A stretch of 64,000 nt of DNA from Botryllus schlosseri (Eukaryota), in assembly GCA_051294905.1 (NCBI GenBank), contig CM119372.1:31374001-31438000 (forward strand), read 5' to 3'. Numbering within the stretch: the stretch's first letter is position 1; each line of letters starts with the position of its first letter. Both the position numbers and the translations under genes were made by a program. The notes under the pieces were generated by a model that saw only the letters and a list, made by a program, of their open reading frames with translations, ran no database searches and was not told where the DNA came from. This document shows positions 5,580-59,340 of the stretch, piece after piece.

Positions 5580-5975
5580 TGCTCGGAGAAAAGGTCGCTT
5601 CATTCAGAACAGGCAAAGGCCACGAATTCTGCCACTGGCAAACATTTGTTGGATTATTCTGTTTGGGCGAAAAATTACGGAGATGACACATATTTCGCGC
5701 CATCGGGAGAGGTCGTTCTCACTTTCATGTGTGTGCCTTGGAGTTGACTTTTATCAAAGCCAACCTGGTTCGTCCCCTTTATGTATCATCTAAAAATACT
5801 GCATTGAGCTTAAGCGATCTCTGACTGAAATATCCGAAATTTCATGCCAGTGACGTCATGTTTGGAGATACGATTATTGGTTTACAATGTTCCTTCCAAT
5901 TCTCTACTAGTCGCTGACGATCACCCCTAATGGGTGTCAGCCGAAGATATTCGGGTTCATTTCAATATAAACACA
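5580..5975 (+). mobile_element. Penelope-like 3' fragment (GIY-YIG tail + 3' repeat)
   Basis: EQAKATNSATGKHLLD...KNYGDD...GRGRSHFHVCALELTFIK matches the 11476 ORF; followed by the shared attctctactagt.gctgacga...ttcgggttcatttcaa tail. Confidence 0.8.
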
Positions 5976-11135: not shown

Positions 11136-11329
11136 CTGAATAGGAAAGAAGACTGAGCAAAAGCGTTTGAAATGTTACAACATAGAAGGATTTTCTATAT
11201 TGATGTTTGAATAGCAGCCATTCATACATGTCTTCGTTAATTCTGTTGTAAAAATATGTATTATAAGAGACTCTTTGGGGTACAGAACTTTAATATAAAT
11301 TTTAATAATATATTCATTGCAGAATTATA

Positions 11330-12283
11330 TTAAAAGCTTTTCGAGCTGACACTCTTCTAGGGCAATCGTCAGCAAATGGAGAATTTCAAAAACATGCATC
11401 TAGCTACATTGCATACAACCAATTATGACGTCATAGAAACAAACAACATGAAATACAGGCAAACCGCGAGCACAGCTACTGGCCAGTTTGTAGATTGACT
11501 AAAAATTCCTTCTGCTGACACAAGCGCGGTCGGTGGATTTTAATATAAGTCGATTCCAGTGCAGATAGATGGAAATAAGTGCGGACTCTACCTAATATAG
11601 AGAATCTTTCATCGCGATAGTTTTTAGCGCAAGTTGCATTCTCAGCCAAATGCTTGCCAATGGCAGAGTTCATAGCCATGGCCTGATTACGTTCTAGTAA
11701 TCGCAGATCAGTTACGGCTGCGTCTTCGCGGGACTCCAATGTGCGCGATCTAATAACGCTCGGAACATGTTGTTTGATGTGTTCCTGCAAGCGCTGAGTT
11801 GTTTTTCCCACGTACCGACAATCACAGTGGCACTTGAAATCATAGACTATTTTGCTTTGTTGAGAAGCAGGAAGAACATCTTTGCGCGTTGCAGGACACA
11901 ATTGTTTGGTGGTAAACACAACATTAGTTTTTACGTTATCGTAACAGCGATTTACAGCAGAAATCAATTGCTTTTCAAAACGGGAAGAGATGGGCCCTCA
12001 GCCACGGTAAATGTACATATACATTCTCCTCAGACCGTGTGTTCGTGTTTTGTGATTTGCTGGGATTGAAATTACTGAGTTTTCTGTCCACAGAACTCTT
12101 GACGATGTGTTCGGGGTACCCGTTATCGATTAGAATTTTGCGGATATATTCTAGCTCCGCGTTCAATTTTACATCCGAACATATCATCAAGGCTCAGTGC
12201 ACCAACGTGCCAATCAAATTTAGTTCCGGGCAATTCGGGCTAAACGAATTCCAGCGTATATATTGTCCTGTAAACGTATATTA
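11330..12283 (-). mobile_element. 5'-truncated, frameshifted Penelope-like retroelement (RT C-terminus + GIY-YIG endonuclease + 3' hammerhead-like motif)
   Basis: FTGQYIRWNSF...ELEYIRKILIDNGYPEHIV (RT thumb), then SKIVYDFKCHCDCRYVGKTTQRLQEHIKQH...SAIGKHL...ALESTYIK...LCQQKE (GIY-YIG); frameshift near 11970. Confidence 0.9.
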
Positions 12284-13465: not shown

Positions 13466-14982
13466 CCGTAATTTTCCAAGTATAGTACGCCCCCATGTAT
13501 AATACGCACCCCTAAAATAGCATGTAAATTCTGGGGGAAAGTCTGTACCCATGTATAGTACGCACCTTTCATTTCAGTACATGAATAGTTCCGAGATGTC
13601 ACTCTTGAACAATCATTACATAACGATCGCTAATCATTATACAATTGCGGGATTGTCTTTAAACGATAGTAGATAGCAGCCAAAGCCTGCGAGGCGGGTG
13701 GTGCGATACATCTTGAGCACGAGGAGACCTTTTACAGATGCGATTGCTAATCATTATACAATTAACGGTATTGTCTCTAAACGTTAGTAGATAGCAGCCA
13801 AAGCCTGCGAGGCCGGCGGCGAGTTAGTTTAGGCCAACGAACCGACATCTTGTGCATGATGCCTTTTACAGATGCGATTGCGCCTAGGCTAACGGTTATG
13901 TCATGCGCAACAGGTCTGTTGGAGATGCGACTGATTACGCAAGCGATTATATCTTGCGCACATGGCCTCTTGTATATGCATATGCGATTGTTCGGGCCTG
14001 TCGTTGACGCGATGAATTGGCGAGAATTGCCGCGCGCGAGTATCTATTAGAGTGACTATTACTATAGAAATTAAACATGGAACGGCAACGACCGATTTTG
14101 CAGCTTCGTTCCGCTTCGCCGAGGCTGGAGTGGAGAATTGTTTTGCGTAAGCGACTGTAGGATTTCTGGTAATCCAAAATCTATCTTCCCGAGCGCAGAA
14201 ATTATTGAATCTGGTCTTGATCGAAAGCTACCGTTGCACCGATTCCGAAAATATAAATTGAAATAATGATCAGGCACTGATCCATCTAGAATCCGTCCTC
14301 CAAGTCTGAAATATCGGCATTGTTCGAACAATCGGAGAGTCACAAGGGGTCATTGCTATGGCCATTGTGTTGCGGTTACCCGATTGTTCTGAACAATGCC
14401 GATATTTCAGACTTGGAGGACAGATTCTAGTTGGAACAGTGCCTGATCAATATTTTAATTTATATTTTCGGAATCGGTGCTACAGTAGCTTTCGATCAAG
14501 ACCAGATTCAGTAATTTCTGCGCTCGGGAAGATAGCTTTTGGATTGCCAGAAATCCTACAGTGGATTACGCAAAACAATTCTCCACTCCAGCCTCGGCGA
14601 AGCGGAACGAAGCTGCAAAATCGGTCGTTGCCGTTCCATGTTTAATTTCTATACTATTACTGACCTAACTTCGCTCGCGTACAAACGGCAATCGGCAAAC
14701 CAACTCAGCAGGAGGTCGCGTGCTTGTGCACACGGCTCTCGTTAATTGGTAAAACAGGCTTCCTTTAATTGGCAGCGCGTCACACTCTATAATACGAATT
14801 ACTACCCGCGATGGCTGAAAGTGACGCGCGATTGGAAACAAACATGAAGAAAGCTGTGATTTCAAGTTTTTTATCGAGGGAGATTTTTTTCAAGCGTGTT
14901 GTTCCCATGTTATAATACGCACCCCCTGATTTTAGGGCAAAAAATCGTGTAAATTTTGCGGATTATACATGGAAAATTACGG
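13466..14982. mobile_element. Non-autonomous Tc1/mariner-type (Tc2/pogo-like) element
   Basis: TA|CCGTAATTTTCCA ... TGGAAAATTACGG|TA; subterminal TATAATACGCACC motifs; internal ~75-bp direct repeat (13625/13741). Confidence 0.8.
14063..14653. mobile_element. Foldback/hairpin MITE with 7-bp TSD (P-superfamily-like), nested in the Tc1/mariner element
   Basis: ~270-bp inverted arms TATAGAAATTAAACATGGAACGGC...; TSD CTATTAC on both sides. Confidence 0.85.
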
Positions 14983-15657
14983 TACGCACTGGCAAGTTCG
15001 TAAGTAATTCCGACAACTCTGGAATATGATGTTTAAAGCAGACAAGAATGATGATTACAAACCCAAAAGCGCGCAACTAATCAGTAATTGTCTCTTACGG
15101 CCAACACAATGGGTTTCTGACTTCGCGTTGAGTAGCTCGCATCGCGGCAATCGTTTACATATTAAAACAGCGCTTTTGGCGGCATTGCTACATTTCGCGA
15201 TTTACGTTCGCAAAGCATTTGAGTATATCGGTTGTATATGCCTCAAAATGATTAAGGGCAAAATATATAACGTCCTATTCCTATTTATTGTAAGGACAAT
15301 GGGCTAGAAGTAATTCCAATTGCGGGCGCATGCCGCGATCTTATCAATAGAAATCCCCTGTCTACCAAATGCCCAACAGTTTGTAATTCGATACTATTGT
15401 TCTCGATACGAGTCCGACCAGCGATCAAGTTTATTGGAATATAGAAGGTTGCCCGTTCAAACGAATCGAATAAATTCAGAATTGTGCCGTCTCGTGATGC
15501 ATCAATATTTGACAGCGACATTCAATGCCGTGCACAATGCGCCATGTTCATATCGAATGGAACACTGACAAATGACACGCTCTCGTATTCGACATTTCAT
15601 GCTGGCGACGTTATATTTTGTGCTACGATTGTTGATATACTGTACGATGTTCTTTTG

Positions 15658-15780
15658 AATTCTCTACTAGTTGCTGACGATTACCCCTGACGAGTGTCAG
15701 CCGAAAATATTCGGGTTCACTTCAATATGAATATACTATTCAATTGTATATTGAAGTTCTGTACCTCCAGGAAGCTGTAC
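15658..15780 (+). mobile_element. Penelope-like 3' terminal repeat (shortest complete-motif copy)
   Basis: aattctctactagttgctgacga...aatatactattcaattgtata shared with 58110-58225; another partial copy at ~58710-58775. Confidence 0.7.
15673..15716 (+). ncRNA. Putative minimal type I hammerhead ribozyme
   Basis: ACCC-CUGACGA-G[UGUCAGC]C-GAAA-[AUAU]-UC^-GGGU: stem I ACCC/GGGU, intact core, palindromic stem III loop, predicted cut after C15712. Confidence 0.55.
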
Positions 15781-15810
15781 AAATGACATTGCACGATAAC
15801 TCGGGAATAC

Positions 15811-25394: not shown

Positions 25395-26649
25395 GGGAGG
25401 GGACATATGGACTGACGTCAGTCGAATTGGTGAGGGGACATGTTGCACAAGATAAATGACGTCAGTTTTTTTGGATGAATATCTGGATTTGGATTTCACT
25501 GCATTTGTGGGGGAGGACCCAGCTAGGTCTTGCCCAACTGCGGGGGCTGATGACCCCACGCTGTCGTGAGTTTTGACCGTTCTTGGCAAGATTCCCGCCC
25601 ATTTGCACAATGAATCCTTGGCCCATTTGCAAAATTTCTTGCCCATTATTTGCAAAATAAGAACATCAACCTTTTCGAGAAATTAAGAAAACAAGTTTTT
25701 TCGAACATCCCTATAGTGCACTACACACATGTGGCCATTTGGCCTCAAAGGTCGGACACCCCTGCTTAGCATGTTCATTGTTCGTGCTGATTACTAGCGG
25801 GCAAATTGCCTAACTATCTGTACATATTCTGACCTACAGTATAGCCCGCCTTTATTTATTGCGTATACATAGACGACCGCAAGTGCAATTCTCTTTTTCT
25901 CAATGGCGTTTTCTTTTGCACAAGCACCCAAGAGACTCGGGTAAGCATTGTATTTATTCAATATCGAATATTTGCCAATCATATATGTTGCATGGCCTCA
26001 TTTTGATATTTTTCAACTTGGTTTTATTCGACAGCACAGCAGTGTCTAATAGTGATTTCAAAATGTATGGTCACTACGTTGTCCAACTGTCCATAGTGCC
26101 TCTTTGTTGACTGCTACACCCGGTCGGCGGTCACCCATCGTGTGCTGACTAAAAAACATCATCTGATCCACCCCGCAAATGATAAATTGATTCCGGCTCA
26201 ACTTAGCCTTATAGGCAGGCAGGCATATGTATTTGAGGCCATCGCCTATACTTGCGTATTTAGATATATATATAATATATATATGTTTGGACAAGAAACT
26301 AGCCTGTACTTGTGATTTGATCTTCACAGATGTCACCAAACCAACCACCAGTTAGATATACGCAAATTCGCATTCACATTTCAAGGTTTTTTAAATATAA
26401 GCCTGACACAATACTCGGTGAATCTATTTTGTCAATGTCGCTGATGCTGGCAACCATAGGCGCCGAGTTACGGGGTGGCGGCCACCCTATACAATAAGAT
26501 TAAACGCCGCCGTCTGCGATTTCAAATCATCAGCGCTGTCAATTAGCGAGTACGTGAGAGCGCGTAAATGCCAACTATTTACCATTAACCGATACCCGCG
26601 CGATTGATTGAATACGCAGCTTCGTCGGCGACGCCGAGCTAGTGCTTAA

Positions 26650-27139
26650 AGGGGCACTGCGCTCTAAAAATGATGTGGTCTCAAATTGAAGGTAAAAACG
26701 AACTAAAATTTTTGGCCGCAGCCATTTCTTTCAGAACGCCACCGTAATGGAACTGCAATTTATTGAAATTTCTACAAGACCAGCTGCCGCGGCTGCTTAA
26801 CCCGTTACATGGCACGATATCTTCATCGTCGCACTTGCTCGACGCGATAAGGCAGTCACGCAGAGAACGAAACTTAGACACATTTCCTTTATAACATCGG
26901 CTGACAACTATCTAAAATTCGTTCTCTGCGTGACTGCCTATTCGCGTCGAGCAAGTGCGACGGTGAAGATATCATGCCATGTAACGGGTTAAGCAGCCGC
27001 GGCAGCTGGTCTTGTAGAAATTTCAATAAATTGCAGCTTCATTACGGTGGCGTTCTGAAGGAAATGGCTGCAGCCAAAAATTTTCGTTCGTTTTTACCTT
27101 CAATTTGAGACCACATCATTTTTAGAGCGCAGTGCCCCT
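26650..27139. mobile_element. Kolobok/T2-like hairpin MITE
   Basis: TTAA|AGGGGCACTGCGC ... GCGCAGTGCCCCT|TTAA; ~220-bp inverted arms; AGGRR terminus with TTAA target. Confidence 0.85.
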
Positions 27140-27174
27140 TTAAAGCGCCCCAGTAAATTGTAATCCGTGATTAG

Positions 27175-28955: not shown

Positions 28956-30770
28956 CAGGTGCGTAGCCAGGGAGTTTCTCATTTATAACTGGAAATCCTG
29001 TCCTTTTGAAATGCCAACTCACTAATTCGTATTATCGATGCTGCGTACTGCAAATTAGCGAGAATTATTTGTATGCGAAATGGGTCATCGATATCTCATG
29101 TGCACTATCGTCGGTGGTTTGATTTAGCGCGTTCGCATGCAGGCCTGCTACCATCCGCAGAAACTCTTCGCCCAACAGTAACAATCTCTGAGTGTAATAT
29201 TGTTTGTGTTTATGTAACTTTTTGATTAAATCTTATGCCCGAGTCTGAACAAATTGTGCTCTTTGCCATTGTCGATATGGGTATTTAGGTATGACTAGCG
29301 CACCCTGTTATTGTAATTATTGCAGGTTTGCGGCCTGTCTGCAGTTTCGTTATCAGCGCAACCTTGCCGGTCGATTGTACAGTCCGATAAAATTGATCAC
29401 TACTATGTATTTCGCGCAGCGTACTGATGCTGATTTTACCAAACTAACGATCCTTATTAGATGCACAAATTCGACCTCATCATCAGAAACGCAGATTTCA
29501 TCGCGCGCTCTGAGAAACACCATCTTCTATCGCGATTTGACGACCAAATATACGTTCACCTTCTACAAATTAAAGTGCAATATTTGCATCGATGAGGGCG
29601 GGAAGCCCCGTTTGAAATATTTTGTGAGCCATTTTTGTGATAAATATTTTCGTAGCGCAACGTTGAACAGTGATTTATTGTGTGTGCGAGTGTGCCTTTG
29701 CCTTATTCCAGTAACCATAATAATAATCCAATTATGCTTTGCGAACGTAAATCGGGAAATGCAGCAATGCAGTCAAAATCTAGGTTTTAATCAGCAACCA
29801 ATTGTCGCGATGAGAGCTCTCAATACTAAGTAAAACCCATTGTGTTGGCGGTAAGGGATAATTACTGATTGGCCGCGCGCGTTTGTAATCATAATTCTTG
29901 TCTGTCTTTCGTGTTCCAGAATTGTCGCGCTATAGAAATTAAACATGGAACGGCAACGACCGATTTTGCAGCTTCGTTCCGCTTCGCCGAGGCTGGAGTG
30001 GAGAGTGGTTTTGCGTATGCGACTGTAGGATTTCTGGCAATCCAAAATCTATCTTCCCGAGCACAGAAATTATTGAATATGGTCTTGATCGAAAGCCACT
30101 GTTGCACCGATTCCGAAAATATAAATTAAAATAATGATCAGGCACTGATCCACCTAGAATCCGTCCTCCAAGTCGAAATATCGGCATTGTTCGAACAATC
30201 GGAGTCGCAACGGGTCATTGTTATGGTCATTGTGTTGCGGTTACCCGATTGTTCTGAACAATGCCGATACTTCAGACTTGGAGGACAGATTCTAGGTGGA
30301 TCAGTGCCTGATCATTATTTAAATTTATATTTTCGGAATCGGTGCAACAGTAGCTTTCGATCAAGACCAGATTCAATAATTTCTGCGCTCGGGAAGACAG
30401 CTTTTGGATTGCCAGAAATCCTACAGTCGCTTACGCAAAACAATTCTCCTCTCCAGCCTCTGCGAAGCGGAACGAAGCTGCAAAATCGGTCGTTGCCGTT
30501 CCATGTTTAATTTCTACAGTCGCGCCGTGTTACTGCTCAGTTCAGCGACGAATGCCGAGCCCGCGCGGCAATCAATGACTTAATTCCGCAATCATCTCAG
30601 CGGGAGATCGCGTCGCATTAGATTGTGCGATATGCGTGCACAGACGAATCTCGCTAATTGGTTGCAGCCCCGCGTAACACTGATAATACGACTTGTTGAA
30701 TTGCAACTGAATATTAGCGTCAGAATGGCCATTTCAAAGGGTTTCGACACCCCTCCTGGCTCCGCGCCTG
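28956..30770. mobile_element. Probable relative of the 60665 element
   Basis: CAGGTGCGTAGCCAGG ... CCTGGCTCCGCGCCTG; 30545-30610 is the reverse complement of 61418-61480; TSD does not match. Confidence 0.5.
29931..30518. mobile_element. Second copy of the 7-bp-TSD foldback MITE
   Basis: Near-identical to 14063-14653; TSD GTCGCGC at 29924-29930 and 30519-30525. Confidence 0.85.
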
Positions 30771-31176
30771 CCGCCACCCCATGCAAAAATAAAAGTCGGC
30801 GCCTATGCTGGCAACGATCTTGGCTCTCCGAGGAAATATTTCATTATTCTACTTGAGTGGCATGAATGCTTTAGGTGGGTCCAGTGATAATGTTACTTTG
30901 TTGGTTCATTTTGTCATTTCCTGACCTCCGGTAAAAATCGTTACTACCGGTACTCAAAAGAAATTAGAATTGCTCACACGTAACAGACCAAATGAAAATA
31001 GTCGCATTTGTGCTGCGGGGCAAAGGTTGCAAGGACAGGATTATACAGAGCATATTGAGACATTAATTTTAAAGAAATACCTTCTGTCATATGAACAATT
31101 GAACATTCATCTGTGTGTGCAATTGCAGCGTTCTAGATTATCCAGCACTTGATTTATACCAACTTTCATTATTGTA

Positions 31177-32796
31177 TTGGACAGATTCTCCTGGGAATAT
31201 GTGAATGTGAACCGTGTTCAGAAAATAGTTGAAGATCATAATGATGAACTGTGTGCTTCAATTCTGAAACTGAAAGCTGAACAAAACCTTTGTGATGTCA
31301 CAATCAAGTGCAGGGATTTTGAAGTGAAGGCACATAAAATGATACTGGTGGCAAGCACAGAGTATTTCAAAGCAATGTTCCGAAATGACACTAAAGAATC
31401 TCAGAGTCAAATTGTTGACTTTTCTGCCATGGATCCCGATGTGGTGAGACAGATTGTTGATTTCATCTATACTGGATCTGTGTGGATTACGATGGATATA
31501 GCTCGAGGGCTTTTGGATGCTGCGGAAATGATACAATTACCTAAATTGTCTCAGCTTTGCGTGGAGTTTCTGGCCGAAAATGTTGATATGAAAAGCTGTG
31601 CTGAGGTCATGTCTCTAATCCGTCTGTATAAAAAGCAGAAATTGAATTTGGTCCTCCAGAATTTTCTTGAAAAACATTTTGAAGAATTTCGCAAAACCGC
31701 TGATTTTTTATCTCTAGACTATATTGGTCTTGTGGATTGCCTAGGATTTCTAAAGAAAGGCTGCGGTGCATTAGAAGAGCAAAAATGGTTTGGGATTCTG
31801 TCGTGGACTAAGGAACGACTTGAAAGAAAACAACATTTCAATACCCTCTTTAAGATGGTGGATCTTCACTGCCTATCCAATGAAGTTTTGAGTAAAAGTG
31901 TCTGTTGTCAAAATTTTGTCAGCGATTCGGTAGAGTGTTTGCGACTTGTCCAATATGTTTTACTTAATAAACCGAATCCTGTGAAAAAATTGGATCAAAT
32001 CAATGATGAGTGGAAAATGAGTGGAATTTTATCAGTCAACCCTCAGACCCGCATTGTCTACAAATACCACCTCGCAATGGAGAGTTGGACGAGGTTAACC
32101 AAATTGCCTATGACAGTGAACTCGCTGGATACTTGTTCCATTACAACGCATGAAGGTATTCTGTATGTTGGAAATGGCCAAAATTTGTGGATCTTTGAAA
32201 GGAATGAATGGCGCAAACTTTATTGCGGGAATTATGCACCAGCTTATAATGTCTGCTTTTATTTTCAAGGATTGGTAGTCATGGTATCTACTGCTGCTAC
32301 TGTGATATTCAACATATATAGCGGTAAAGTGTCGTATGTACTTGGTGTGTGTAATTATTCGGGTTTTTTTATCGCAAAATCTACGACGGATCTTTATGTC
32401 ATGGGTGGAATTAACGGGCAAAAATATTCACATCGTGTGCAAATGCTTCGGCTATCACCTACAGTCGGTCGGTTCTCTTCTTTTCCATCGCTAACAAAAG
32501 CCCGCGCTCGGGGACAAGGTATGTGGTATGAAAACACTCTCTATGCATTGGGTGGGGGGCTAGAAAATCCTGAGTTTTTCAACAACATCACTGAGCAATG
32601 GCAATTGATTGCGAATCTCAAAATAAACTGTTACATGATGAAAACCCACATTGAAAATAACAAACTGTACATTTTCAGCATGAATTCGAATTTATCTATG
32701 AGGACCATTGACCTTATTGACCTGCATTTGTCAGAGGCAGATAAAAAGCCAAATTCAAGAAATGTTGGAGATATGGTCATTTCCTGTGTGTATTAA
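31177..32796 (+). CDS. BTB-BACK-Kelch (kelch-like, KLHL family) protein; one long coding exon
   Basis: BTB motifs (LCDVTIKC..EVKAHKMILVASTEYFKAMF, IVDFIYTG, LLDAAEMIQL..L...CVEFL), BACK-like region (F....DFLSL, ILSW....LER), degenerate kelch blades (LYVGNG, LYVMGG, LYALGG). ORF starts at TTG; an acceptor AG at 31183-31184 suggests the real start is in an upstream exon. Confidence 0.9.
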   Translation: MDRFSWEYVNVNRVQKIVEDHNDELCASILKLKAEQNLCDVTIKCRDFEVKAHKMILVASTEYFKAMFRNDTKESQSQIVDFSAMDPDVVRQIVDFIYTGSVWITMDIARGLLDAAEMIQLPKLSQLCVEFLAENVDMKSCAEVMSLIRLYKKQKLNLVLQNFLEKHFEEFRKTADFLSLDYIGLVDCLGFLKKGCGALEEQKWFGILSWTKERLERKQHFNTLFKMVDLHCLSNEVLSKSVCCQNFVSDSVECLRLVQYVLLNKPNPVKKLDQINDEWKMSGILSVNPQTRIVYKYHLAMESWTRLTKLPMTVNSLDTCSITTHEGILYVGNGQNLWIFERNEWRKLYCGNYAPAYNVCFYFQGLVVMVSTAATVIFNIYSGKVSYVLGVCNYSGFFIAKSTTDLYVMGGINGQKYSHRVQMLRLSPTVGRFSSFPSLTKARARGQGMWYENTLYALGGGLENPEFFNNITEQWQLIANLKINCYMMKTHIENNKLYIFSMNSNLSMRTIDLIDLHLSEADKKPNSRNVGDMVISCVY

Positions 32797-52631: not shown

Positions 52632-53590
52632 GGCATATATACACCGGCTCATGATATACATCCACACGATCTGTGCATATGTATAGTAAATGAGTAGTAG
52701 GGGTCTTCAAAAATGACTTTCTTTGTCAAATCGTACTGGCTACTTAACAAAATTGTCAAGTTACCTAATTTAAGCCTACACACCAAATTTGGTTCAATTC
52801 TAACCAGTAGCCGCATTGCTACAGGAGAAGAGAGTTTCTATTTATTATATAACAATAACTAACAAAAAATTTGAAAATTTTCTGTTCACCCCATGAAAGT
52901 GTTAGGTTGTGTATAGAAACGATGTTCACCAAATTTGGTTCAATTCCAACCAGTGGAAGCGGAGTTATTGCCGTCGAAAAATTTGGATTATGAATAAAAC
53001 AGTATTTACGGTGACCAATTCTGTAATTATTTATTATAGTGGTGCCCACTGTAAACACTATTTTATTCATAATCCAAATTTTTCGACAGCAATAACTCCG
53101 CTTCCACTGGTTGGAATTGAACCAAATTTGGTGAACATCGTTTCTATACACAACCTAACACTTTCATGGGGTGAACAGAAAATTTTCAAATTTTTTGTTA
53201 GTTATTGTTATATAATAAATAGAAACTCTCTTCTCCTGTAGCAATGCGGCTACTGGTTAGAATTGAACCAAATTTGGTGTGTAGGCTTAAATTAGGTAAC
53301 CTAACAATTTTGTCAAGTAGCCAGTACGATTTGAGAAAAAAAGTCATTTTTGAAGACCCTAATGAGTAGCCTACATTATGCGCATATGCCTCTGGACAAG
53401 AAAGATGCAGATATGGCCTTGTAAGGCATTCTAAGTCTTGCACTGCCTCTCCATGCTATCCCGGTCATGCAGAGTGCCAAGCGGGAAAGTCATGAATACC
53501 AGTGTTACTAATCACGGTTTTGGTCTGACACGGTCGGGGATTGAACCTGCGACCTACCGATCAAGAAGCCGGACTCTCCACCATTGGCCG
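52632..53590 (-). mobile_element. tRNA-derived SINE split by the hAT hairpin MITE
   Basis: A/B boxes (TGGTGGAGAGTCCGG; GGTTCAATCCCC) on the minus strand; halves 52632-52697 and 53362-53590 rejoin to match the 3228 copy. Confidence 0.75.
52698..53361. mobile_element. Palindromic hAT MITE, full-length copy, inserted into a SINE
   Basis: TSD ATGAGTAG; ~320-bp near-perfect inverted arms; diverged relatives at ~2390-2797 and ~55050-55561. Confidence 0.9.
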
Positions 53591-57819: not shown

Positions 57820-58235
57820 CTCATACCCTGAAGCTTGATTCAGAACAGGCAAAGGCCATAAATTCTGCCATTGGCAAACATTTGTTGGATACCGTAATCC
57901 TATTTGCAAAAAAAATTATCCAGATTACACATTTCGTGTTGTCGAGAGACTTTTATCAAAACACGCCAACCAGGTGTGTGACTGCAGAAAAAGTTCGTGT
58001 ACCATCTAAAGATAGTATATCCAGCTTATACGCTTTCTTTGGGCCGATTATTCGAAATTTCATGCCGGTGACATCACATGTTAATATAAGATTGTTGATA
58101 TGCAGTTTCCAATTCTCTACTAGTTGCTGACGATCACCCCTGACGACTGTCAGCAGGAAATATTTGGGTTCATTCATATATGAATATACTATTCAATTGT
58201 ATACGGTACTTAAGTTCTGTACTTCCGAGAGGCTC
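57820..58235 (+). mobile_element. Penelope-like 3' fragment
   Basis: SEQAKAINSAIGKHLLD remnant plus the same 3' tail as the 5580 and 1395 copies. Confidence 0.8.
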
Positions 58236-58652: not shown

Positions 58653-59340
58653 CTACCCGAAATTTTATCAAATGCATCAAATATAATTCAAGGCTGTGCA
58701 GTACGCATAAACGACGAGTGTCAGCCAAAAATATTCGGGTTCATTTCAATATGAATATACTATTCAATTGTATAAACACAGACACACACAAACTAGGCCT
58801 AAGATTTATGCAACATTAAGTACTGAATTCAATGTCGTATATCATTTTTCGCAATTGCGATTGAATTCATCTGATTTAAAAATTGAAGTATGATAAAGCA
58901 CACGGCAGTTGATTTCGATACAAAATTCAAATCTTTAGATTATAATGTACTGATATTGGGTCCAGAAGACAGCAGGTCAAAAGGATTCGACTAAATTAAG
59001 CATTATGAAAATATTGTTTGATGACATTTCGAAGCTTCGAATTGCAATGAATCGTTTTAATCTCACAAAGATATACCTTAATTTAATACAAAATGTACTT
59101 GATCACTTGGATTACAGTCGTTCACAAAAAGTTACTTATTTAACTTACAAACGTGATTCGAAAACTGTAGAAGTGATATTGGAAATAGTCTGAAAACATC
59201 ACTACTCTAGAAGCTAGTGAAAGCAGACCAAACCCACTCCCAAAAGTAGACGTATTATGTTACTGACCGCCTCCAGTTCTCAGATATTAATCTGAAGCTA
59301 AAATCTGTGATGCATGTAACATTTTTCATGTTACCAGTAC

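Follow-up and report, generated by a model that had tools for sequence, protein, structure and literature searches.

The motif at positions 15673-15716 of the window, the stretch of 64,000 nucleotides of Botryllus schlosseri DNA analysed here, is likely a type I hammerhead ribozyme carried in the pseudo-LTR of a clade of Penelope-like elements, in which helix II has been replaced by a pseudoknotted composite helix. The pseudoknot, in which a leader hexamer upstream of the catalytic core pairs with a hexamer in loop II, is very probably a conserved structure, as judged from the sequences of sister families. Comparison of these families demonstrates the leader/loop II helix, stem I and the palindrome at the position of stem III at the level of covariation. 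We consider that the motif would probably be catalytically active, either as a dimer or with protein.

Re-reading the window confirmed the letters of the motif as given in an earlier, sequence-only reading of this DNA, and with them a core that holds CUGANGA, GAAA and U16.1-H17 in type I order. On the forward strand, the motif starts with the pseudoknot leader strand GCUGAC (15673-15678), which covaries with loop II, followed by the linker GATT (15679-15682), of which G15679 is able to add a G-U pair with U15695. The stem I 5' strand ACCC (15683-15686) comes next, and linker and stem I together measure 8 nt in every family of this genome. The catalytic core C3-A9 CUGACGA (15687-15693), which occurs as a U3-A8 variant in sister families H1 and I, leads directly from A9 into G10.1 with no extra base between them. 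Stem II is a single pair (G15694-C15702; 15694-15702) that closes a 7-nt loop and is G-C in 15/15 representatives; because this G10.1-C11.1 pair is invariant, it has no covariation support, and the search patterns also fixed these bases. Within the loop, one bridging base (T15695), which varies among the representatives (alignment column 27), precedes the pseudoknot 3' strand GUCAGC (15696-15701). The core resumes with G12-A15.1 GAAA (15703-15706), invariant in 15/15, and overlaps the palindrome AAUAUU (15706-15711), which could make stem III only by pairing between molecules or between copies. The stem III region is a 6-nt palindrome, as the earlier reading had proposed, in 13/15 representatives (AAUAUU in family A, to which the window motif belongs, and AAGCUU in the other 12); the dimer was not reproduced by folding. 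The cut that had been predicted after C15712 falls on the 3' side of C17 by the hammerhead consensus, and the stem I 3' strand GGGU (15713-15716) completes a stem I that is 4 bp in family A and flanks the core and the cut site. The ATG of the RT-endonuclease ORF follows at 15727-15729, and the distance from the predicted cut site to the first ATG is 14 nt in family A, 10 or 21 nt in H1, 19 nt in B and 3 nt in M1.

The window contains the exact leader-to-loop pattern twice, whereas 0 of 100 shuffles contain it. Rfam scans of the whole window (4 matches at E<=1) and of 15600-15800 (4 matches at E<=10) returned no hammerhead family, a result that concerns matches to a library and does not define the hammerhead class. 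Just past the ribozyme, an Rfam alignment revealed a 10-bp stem-loop (15719-15757, +) that encloses the ATG as well as the shorter of two insertion ends (+31 to +39); this stem-loop may be the structure at which reverse transcription starts, by analogy with the one described for the Anolis element PAc. The leader together with the next base (15674-15680) duplicates the core heptamer CTGACGA of 15687-15693 in families A and D, and not in other families, and the pseudoknot may have arisen by duplication of this heptamer. The leader CUGACGA was rejected as a second catalytic core, as it has no fitting stems and has disappeared from families B, C, H2 and I.

The link to Penelope-like elements made in the earlier reading is borne out by element structure and ORF domains, which place the motif in the terminal repeat (pseudo-LTR). 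The window insertion is a 5'-truncated family A copy of 201 bp (15578-15778, +) that comprises the 3' UTR/pseudo-LTR, the hammerhead, the start of the next ORF and the tail. It is flanked by 10-bp target-site duplications (left copy, 15568-15577, +; right copy, 15779-15788, +) and is 92% identical over 15577-15784 to the full tandem element L252, in which the same ATG opens an 845-aa ORF. Two motifs 2,683 nt apart flank this ORF; thus, the motif is present in both pseudo-LTRs. The 845-aa protein has an RVT_1 match of 32.2 bits, over the Pfam cut-off, the motifs DKG, YVDD and GYVG, as well as, at its C terminus, a GIY-YIG-type region that is weak in Pfam. It contains no Zn-finger-like CX2-5CXXC linker, which according to PMC8557442 is present in Neptune and Nematis elements. 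Traits of EN+ Penelope elements were found too: copies in tandem, truncated partners in inverted orientation and a tail of 30-40 bp. The element fits the Penelope/Poseidon type, as judged by the description in the same source and by motifs rather than by a tree. A homologue search gave 943 proteins at E<=1e-50 among 8,000 scored, all without DNA context, and among solved structures nothing related was found beyond two weak RT matches. Head-to-tail arrays of full-length H1 elements with a 2,700-bp period are present in both orientations (G000:C12:24286747-24322365 and C6:11273600-11284763) and are natural sources of multimeric transcripts.

Within the window, a copy-search model built from 15 representatives, the window copy among them, found the five copies named in the sequence-only reading at E<=5.6e-10. 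Three of the other four are decayed copies on the forward strand, with C11.1 changed and the palindrome broken at 1535-1578, and with three core changes each at 5913-5956 and 58126-58169. Both hexamers are intact in 5/5 copies, as had been stated, but the copy at 11345-11373 is not of the same family: it belongs to sister family H (11326-11377, -), is 67% identical to family A at the nucleotide level, has an 8-nt loop and an AAGCTT palindrome and has lost the stem I 3' strand by deletion. The C-terminal GIY-YIG part of a Penelope ORF lies ~100 nt upstream of it (11476-11997, -; Pfam GIY-YIG E 0.0014, under its cut-off). A sixth, 5'-truncated copy without leader and with G12 changed was found at 58713-58740 (+; model E 0.59). 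That the hexamers survive where the core has decayed turned out to be weak evidence. By hand count, the window copies have changes at 0/60 hexamer vs 9/65 core sites, a post hoc comparison among copies recognised by those hexamers, whereas in 36 young copies found by DNA similarity, leader, loop and core change alike (leader, 1/216 sites; loop hexamer, 3/216; CUGA/GA, 2/216). We therefore dropped this argument. Among 100 listed copies from the genome whose core is intact, a hand tally found a wobble or mismatch in the helix in 17.

The window also holds a 547-codon uninterrupted ORF (31153-32796, +) with BTB, BACK and weak Kelch domains. Long inverted repeats that are 94-95% complementary, several of them shared between places, are present at 52701-53359, 14052-14664, 29930-30519 and 26646-27143 and are probably MITE-like DNA transposons.

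Genome-wide, the leader-to-GAAA pattern has 4,270 exact copies in the 495-Mb assembly (reversed-pattern control, 0), and a looser pattern, which has another base at core position 7 and leaves four positions per strand free within set letters, adds 860 further matches (control, 0). Sister families were drawn from forty short stretches chosen for variant loops and from further loci, and decayed or truncated copies were excluded from the alignment. The leader and loop hexamers are GCUGAC/GUCAGC in families A, D and H1, GCCGAC/GUUGGC in H2, ACUAAC/GUUAGU in B, ACUGAC/GUCAGU in B2 and ACUGGC/GCCAGU in C; one inverted pair reads UCUGGC/GCCAGA, and family I has the shorter pairing GUGCC/GGCAC. The distance from leader to core is 8 nt in each sister family of this genome, and every family retains the core, two of them (H1 and I) with the published U3-A8 swap. 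Family I is a single copy (L089:1112-1162, -) that combines the U3-A8 core and the GUGCC/GGCAC knot with a 6-bp stem I and a non-palindromic stem III region of 7 nt. A recurrent motif, CTGATGAG-GTGGACT-CGAAA (L050, L106), forms no complete type I hammerhead; it was considered as one and excluded, as it lacks U16.1-H17 and an in-register stem I.

Covariation was scored in an alignment of 15 rows that were hand-picked for diversity. The leader/loop II helix is paired in 92% of the 90 cells, compared with 13-35% in slid controls, and its covariation score was reached by 0/500 shuffles; row M2, which is one base out of register, was scored as broken. Five of the six GCTGAC:GTCAGC pairs and four of the five stem I columns have changed on both sides, and stem I and the palindrome also covary among the 15 representatives. 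Among the first 100 of the 860 looser-pattern matches, a hand tally found 83 that are fully Watson-Crick and represent six hexamer combinations; a single G-U occurs in 11 and a single mismatch in 6. At position 1, the pair is A-U in 67, G-C in 27, U-A in 2 and other in 4; at position 4, G-C in 70, A-U in 26 and G-U in 4; and at position 5, A-U in 74, G-C in 22 and other in 4. These 100 copies are kin and represent a handful of events. The compensatory changes are inherited family differences that amount to perhaps 8-10 independent events, an estimate made without a tree.

Related elements in other records carry the same pairing. A metagenome scan yielded 123 matches at 121 loci, 107 of them with enough upstream sequence, and 6/6 pairs are present in 94/107; the background is 1/59 among non-Penelope pattern matches from prokaryote genomes. 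Of the six-pair matches, 92/94 belong to one family, M1 (UCUGAC/GUCAGA), and lie beside a homologous endonuclease (GIY-YIG). When a 221-nt M1 stretch was compared with this genome, similarity was confined to 42-51 nt around the motif (40 of 87 candidates were scored). Two further families have UGACGC/GCGUCA at a spacing of 9 and 10 (L225; L401, L402 and L409), again after an endonuclease. Three of these loci (L401, L402 and L409) are Penelope-like endonuclease copies ending in a knotted hammerhead on one contig of a bacterial genome bin (CAWUFB020000001.1), which is probably eukaryotic DNA inside that bin. At a distant Penelope-like RT locus that is 28% identical (L206:1483-1533, +), a hammerhead with a 1-bp stem II, an A-rich loop and an AAGCUU palindrome has no leader complement at 7-10 nt. 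No related elements were found on viral contigs, where one match lacks the knot. The pseudoknot proposed in the sequence-only reading is upheld by covariation both in the sister families and in these other records.

Pseudoknots occur in all three hammerhead types according to Perreault 2011 (PMC3088659), in which mutations revealed that a type II ribozyme depends for its speed on a 6-bp pseudoknot formed on a 1-bp stem II. As in these bacterial and phage hammerheads, a Watson-Crick helix here joins the stem I side to a stem II of 1-2 bp, and the features that define such pseudoknots in that study, a helix of at least 4 bp from the stem I side to stem II or loop II with covariation, are all present. 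The 1-bp case tested there is type II, whereas the motif here is type I. In a phage scan, 105 distinct matches came from 117 loci, and 32 were scored as complete type I by script; at least five leader/loop pairs at a spacing of 6-10 are present in 9/32 of these vs 8/73 of the others. Four phage type I examples (L283, L309, L330 and L367) have a 7-nt loop, a 6-bp knot at a spacing of 7-8 and a long stem III. These phage type I hammerheads have a stable stem III of 5-6 bp and are expected to work as monomers, whereas the motif here has a 6-nt palindrome only and resides in a eukaryotic retrotransposon. A recurrent phage type I family (L259, L263, L264, L278, L280 and others) has a 1-bp stem II and a 5-bp leader/loop II pairing 18 nt upstream rather than 7-9.

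We suggest the following model for the folded ribozyme. Stem II would consist of G10.1-C11.1 alone, the six bases on the 3' side of loop II would pair with the leader 8 nt before the core, and one variable base would bridge the two helices. Six paired loop bases that adjoin C11.1, together with one bridging base, are the arrangement usually seen where a pseudoknot helix stacks on a stem. On the basis of known hammerhead structure, the leader helix stacked on G10.1-C11.1 would form a 7-bp composite of approximately the length of a normal Penelope helix II. The linker would tie the end of stem I to the far end of the composite helix and thereby hold stem I parallel to stem II, as phage pseudoknots do. 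As in published Penelope hammerheads, stem III would form only if two copies pair through the 6-nt palindrome, for instance in transcripts of tandem arrays with the 2,683-nt period; alternatively, the protein of the element could help stem III to form, and solo copies would be mostly silent.

If the ribozyme cuts, it would expose a 5'-OH end that lies 3-21 nt ahead of the ORF start, and the 3' region in which reverse transcription starts would be removed. Because the predicted cut lies just before the AUG and would take away the region where reverse transcription starts, we think that the most likely role is that cutting sorts tandem transcripts into cut messenger and uncut template, a tentative proposal that we hold at somewhat less than an even chance and that draws on analogy to PMC11167929 and PMC13725137. 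In the first of these, the Poseidon element PAc of Anolis (Frangieh et al. 2024, PMC11167929), a Penelope-type ORF also begins at the ribozyme and uncut RNA also serves as template. PAc has two 3' ends 30-40 nt apart, and the ends here lie at +31 to +39 and +61 to +77; unlike the motif here, PAc has a conventional stem II and a cut site within the ORF (PMC11167929). In the second, hammerheads in chryso- and fusarivirus 5' UTRs (PMC13725137) are likewise type I with a helix II of 0-2 bp, have their cut site shortly ahead of the start codon (by 7 nt in one example) and need a balance of cut and uncut RNA, and their cutting has been linked to cap-independent translation. They differ in a longer helix III, in low rates and in having no recognised tertiary contact. 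A more far-reaching version, which we regard as doubtful, holds that a whole Penelope clade rebuilt its ribozyme: the leader pseudoknot would replace helix II and restore the tertiary contact described as missing from these elements, and the result would be a fast, dimer-gated switch before the AUG that chooses between uncapped messenger and insertion template.

Copies in the genome bear on whether cutting matters at all. Among 48 family A alignments, the end lies 31-39 nt beyond the cut site in 12 and 61-77 nt beyond it in 36, a stretch that corresponds to the known Penelope tail; because all 48 scored copies extend past it, their templates were uncut RNA, although the alignment filter is blind to copies that end at the cut site itself. 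These uncut templates would suit a non-catalytic role in which the fold persists because it binds the RT-endonuclease or acts in translation, cutting being a relic or of no importance, as would the Anolis element, in which catalytic mutants had no effect on insertion in vitro (PMC11167929). However, families with endonuclease regions that are only 50-70% identical have preserved every catalytic position together with U16.1 and H17, C3-G8 is swapped for U3-A8 and one palindrome for another among families, and the Anolis ribozyme cut once its protein was added (PMC11167929), so that we consider a non-catalytic role unlikely. In three raw RNA runs of the species (one contig set was also mapped), 2,347, 6,342 and 4,411 reads map to one element unit. 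They pile up on the terminal repeat in both directions, and 98%, 69% and 67% of them continue into unrelated sequence, which points to read-through of short solo copies. No site with many molecule ends was found in these reads, which come from fragmented and single-cell libraries that would not keep such ends. Joints of 3301 to 620 in the reads were considered as circles and rejected, as they follow from excising one unit from a tandem array. Among the sequencing runs listed with the motif, none is on record as RNA.

Folding predictions bear on two further alternatives to the ribozyme with a pseudoknotted composite helix. The folding program cannot represent pseudoknots; neither folding nor cofolding gave the active fold, and homodimer folding did not yield the active form. 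The predicted energy of the palindrome is very weak in family A, at -0.2 kcal/mol vs -4.3 for AAGCUU. Nested folding of family A gives a core/loop II hairpin a probability of 0.59 vs 0.40 for the leader helix, and also predicts a CCGAA/UUCGG hairpin that covers the cut site. The sequence-only reading had noted that the CTGAC of the core can fold back on GTCAG and had offered a decoy or folding switch, in which the leader would draw loop II off the core CUGAC and prevent this inactive hairpin. The hairpin is the minimum-energy fold of family A with the leader present or absent, it is favoured in families D and M1 too, and the leader with its next base repeats the core heptamer CUGACGA. Nevertheless, its predicted probability exceeds 50% only in these three families and is <=4% in the other 12 of the 15 rows, where the leader helix is retained with its spacing unchanged. 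Only 76% of the hairpin cells are paired; of its last two pairs, one is disrupted in 6 and the other in 8 of the 15 representatives, and changes in the loop track the leader and break the pairing with the core, with the caveat that the core cannot vary and compensatory change in it is impossible by construction. Moreover, a pure decoy does not need the fixed 8-nt distance. The fold-back thus stands as a favoured fold in a minority of families but not as a conserved switch, which we judge quite unlikely; in some families the misfold probably arises as a by-product. Highly unlikely is an off state in which the core and the stem I 5' strand are shut inside a leader/loop II hairpin, the active form being one whose loop II stays open on a stem II of 1-2 bp: the nested leader helix is predicted at 0.82-0.99 in 8/15 rows, covariation alone is silent on the coexistence of this helix with stem I, and genomic copies retain an uncut ribozyme and would need an off state, but stem I covaries in the same families, the same spacing is found in phage type I hammerheads with a stable stem III, disrupting the pseudoknot lowered the rate in Perreault 2011 (PMC3088659), and bare hammerheads with a helix II of 0-1 bp cut at 1e-2 to 1e-3 per minute (PMC13725137).

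Penelope hammerheads were described by Cervera & De la Pena 2014 (PMC4209133) as having a long helix II, and a U3-A8 swap was reported. The ribozyme with a composite helix resembles these minimal hammerheads in its pseudo-LTR site, type I order, short stem I and G10.1-C11.1 pair, in a palindromic or missing stem III that implies a dimer, in its U3-A8 variant and in its thousands of solo copies; the palindrome of the 2014 consensus, which spans 15.2-16.2 and loop III, is present here as AAUAUU or AAGCUU. By contrast, helix II is a hairpin of at least 3 bp in 56/56 motifs of PMC4209133 Fig. S3 and 1 bp here, with a second pair possible in some families of this clade. Nearly all motifs of PMC4209133 have an extra base between 9 and 10.1, which is missing here, and pairing of loop II with an upstream leader sets the present motif apart from them. 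Because the motif departs from the published consensus in helix II, we regard it as a variant of Penelope hammerheads and not a plain member. According to a 2020 review, Penelope hammerheads lack helix III or the characteristic loop-loop contacts (PMC7761336), and those published cut poorly in vitro (PMC4209133, PMC11167929).

Both ingredients of this architecture are known, Penelope hammerheads since 2014 and pseudoknotted hammerheads with a 1-bp stem II since 2011, and their combination was not found in print. The collection of short-stem-III variants of Lünse 2017 is said to be very large and may contain this architecture. Within the literature searched, no knotted Penelope hammerhead was found; Lünse 2017, Arkhipova 2017 and File S2 of PMC8557442 lie outside that literature and may show one, and the word "pseudoknot" is absent from the accessible part of bioRxiv 10.64898/2026.07.22.740005. 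The earlier suggestion that the architecture is undescribed therefore holds for the knot in Penelope elements with a dimer-type stem III and not for its components, since a knot on a 1-bp stem II was known (PMC3088659) and its geometry occurs in phages.

The finding implies neither new chemistry nor a new ribozyme class. Thousands of such motifs per genome (>5,100 here) escape descriptor searches that demand a helix II in hairpin form, and the missed motifs may include some elements recorded with only a ribozyme 'core'. Penelope hammerheads are poor cutters in vitro and have been described without tertiary contacts, and this clade offers a set in which the contact would be a plain 6-bp helix. 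With natural compensatory variants at hand and stem III as the sole missing part, tertiary stabilisation and dimer gating would become separable in these elements.
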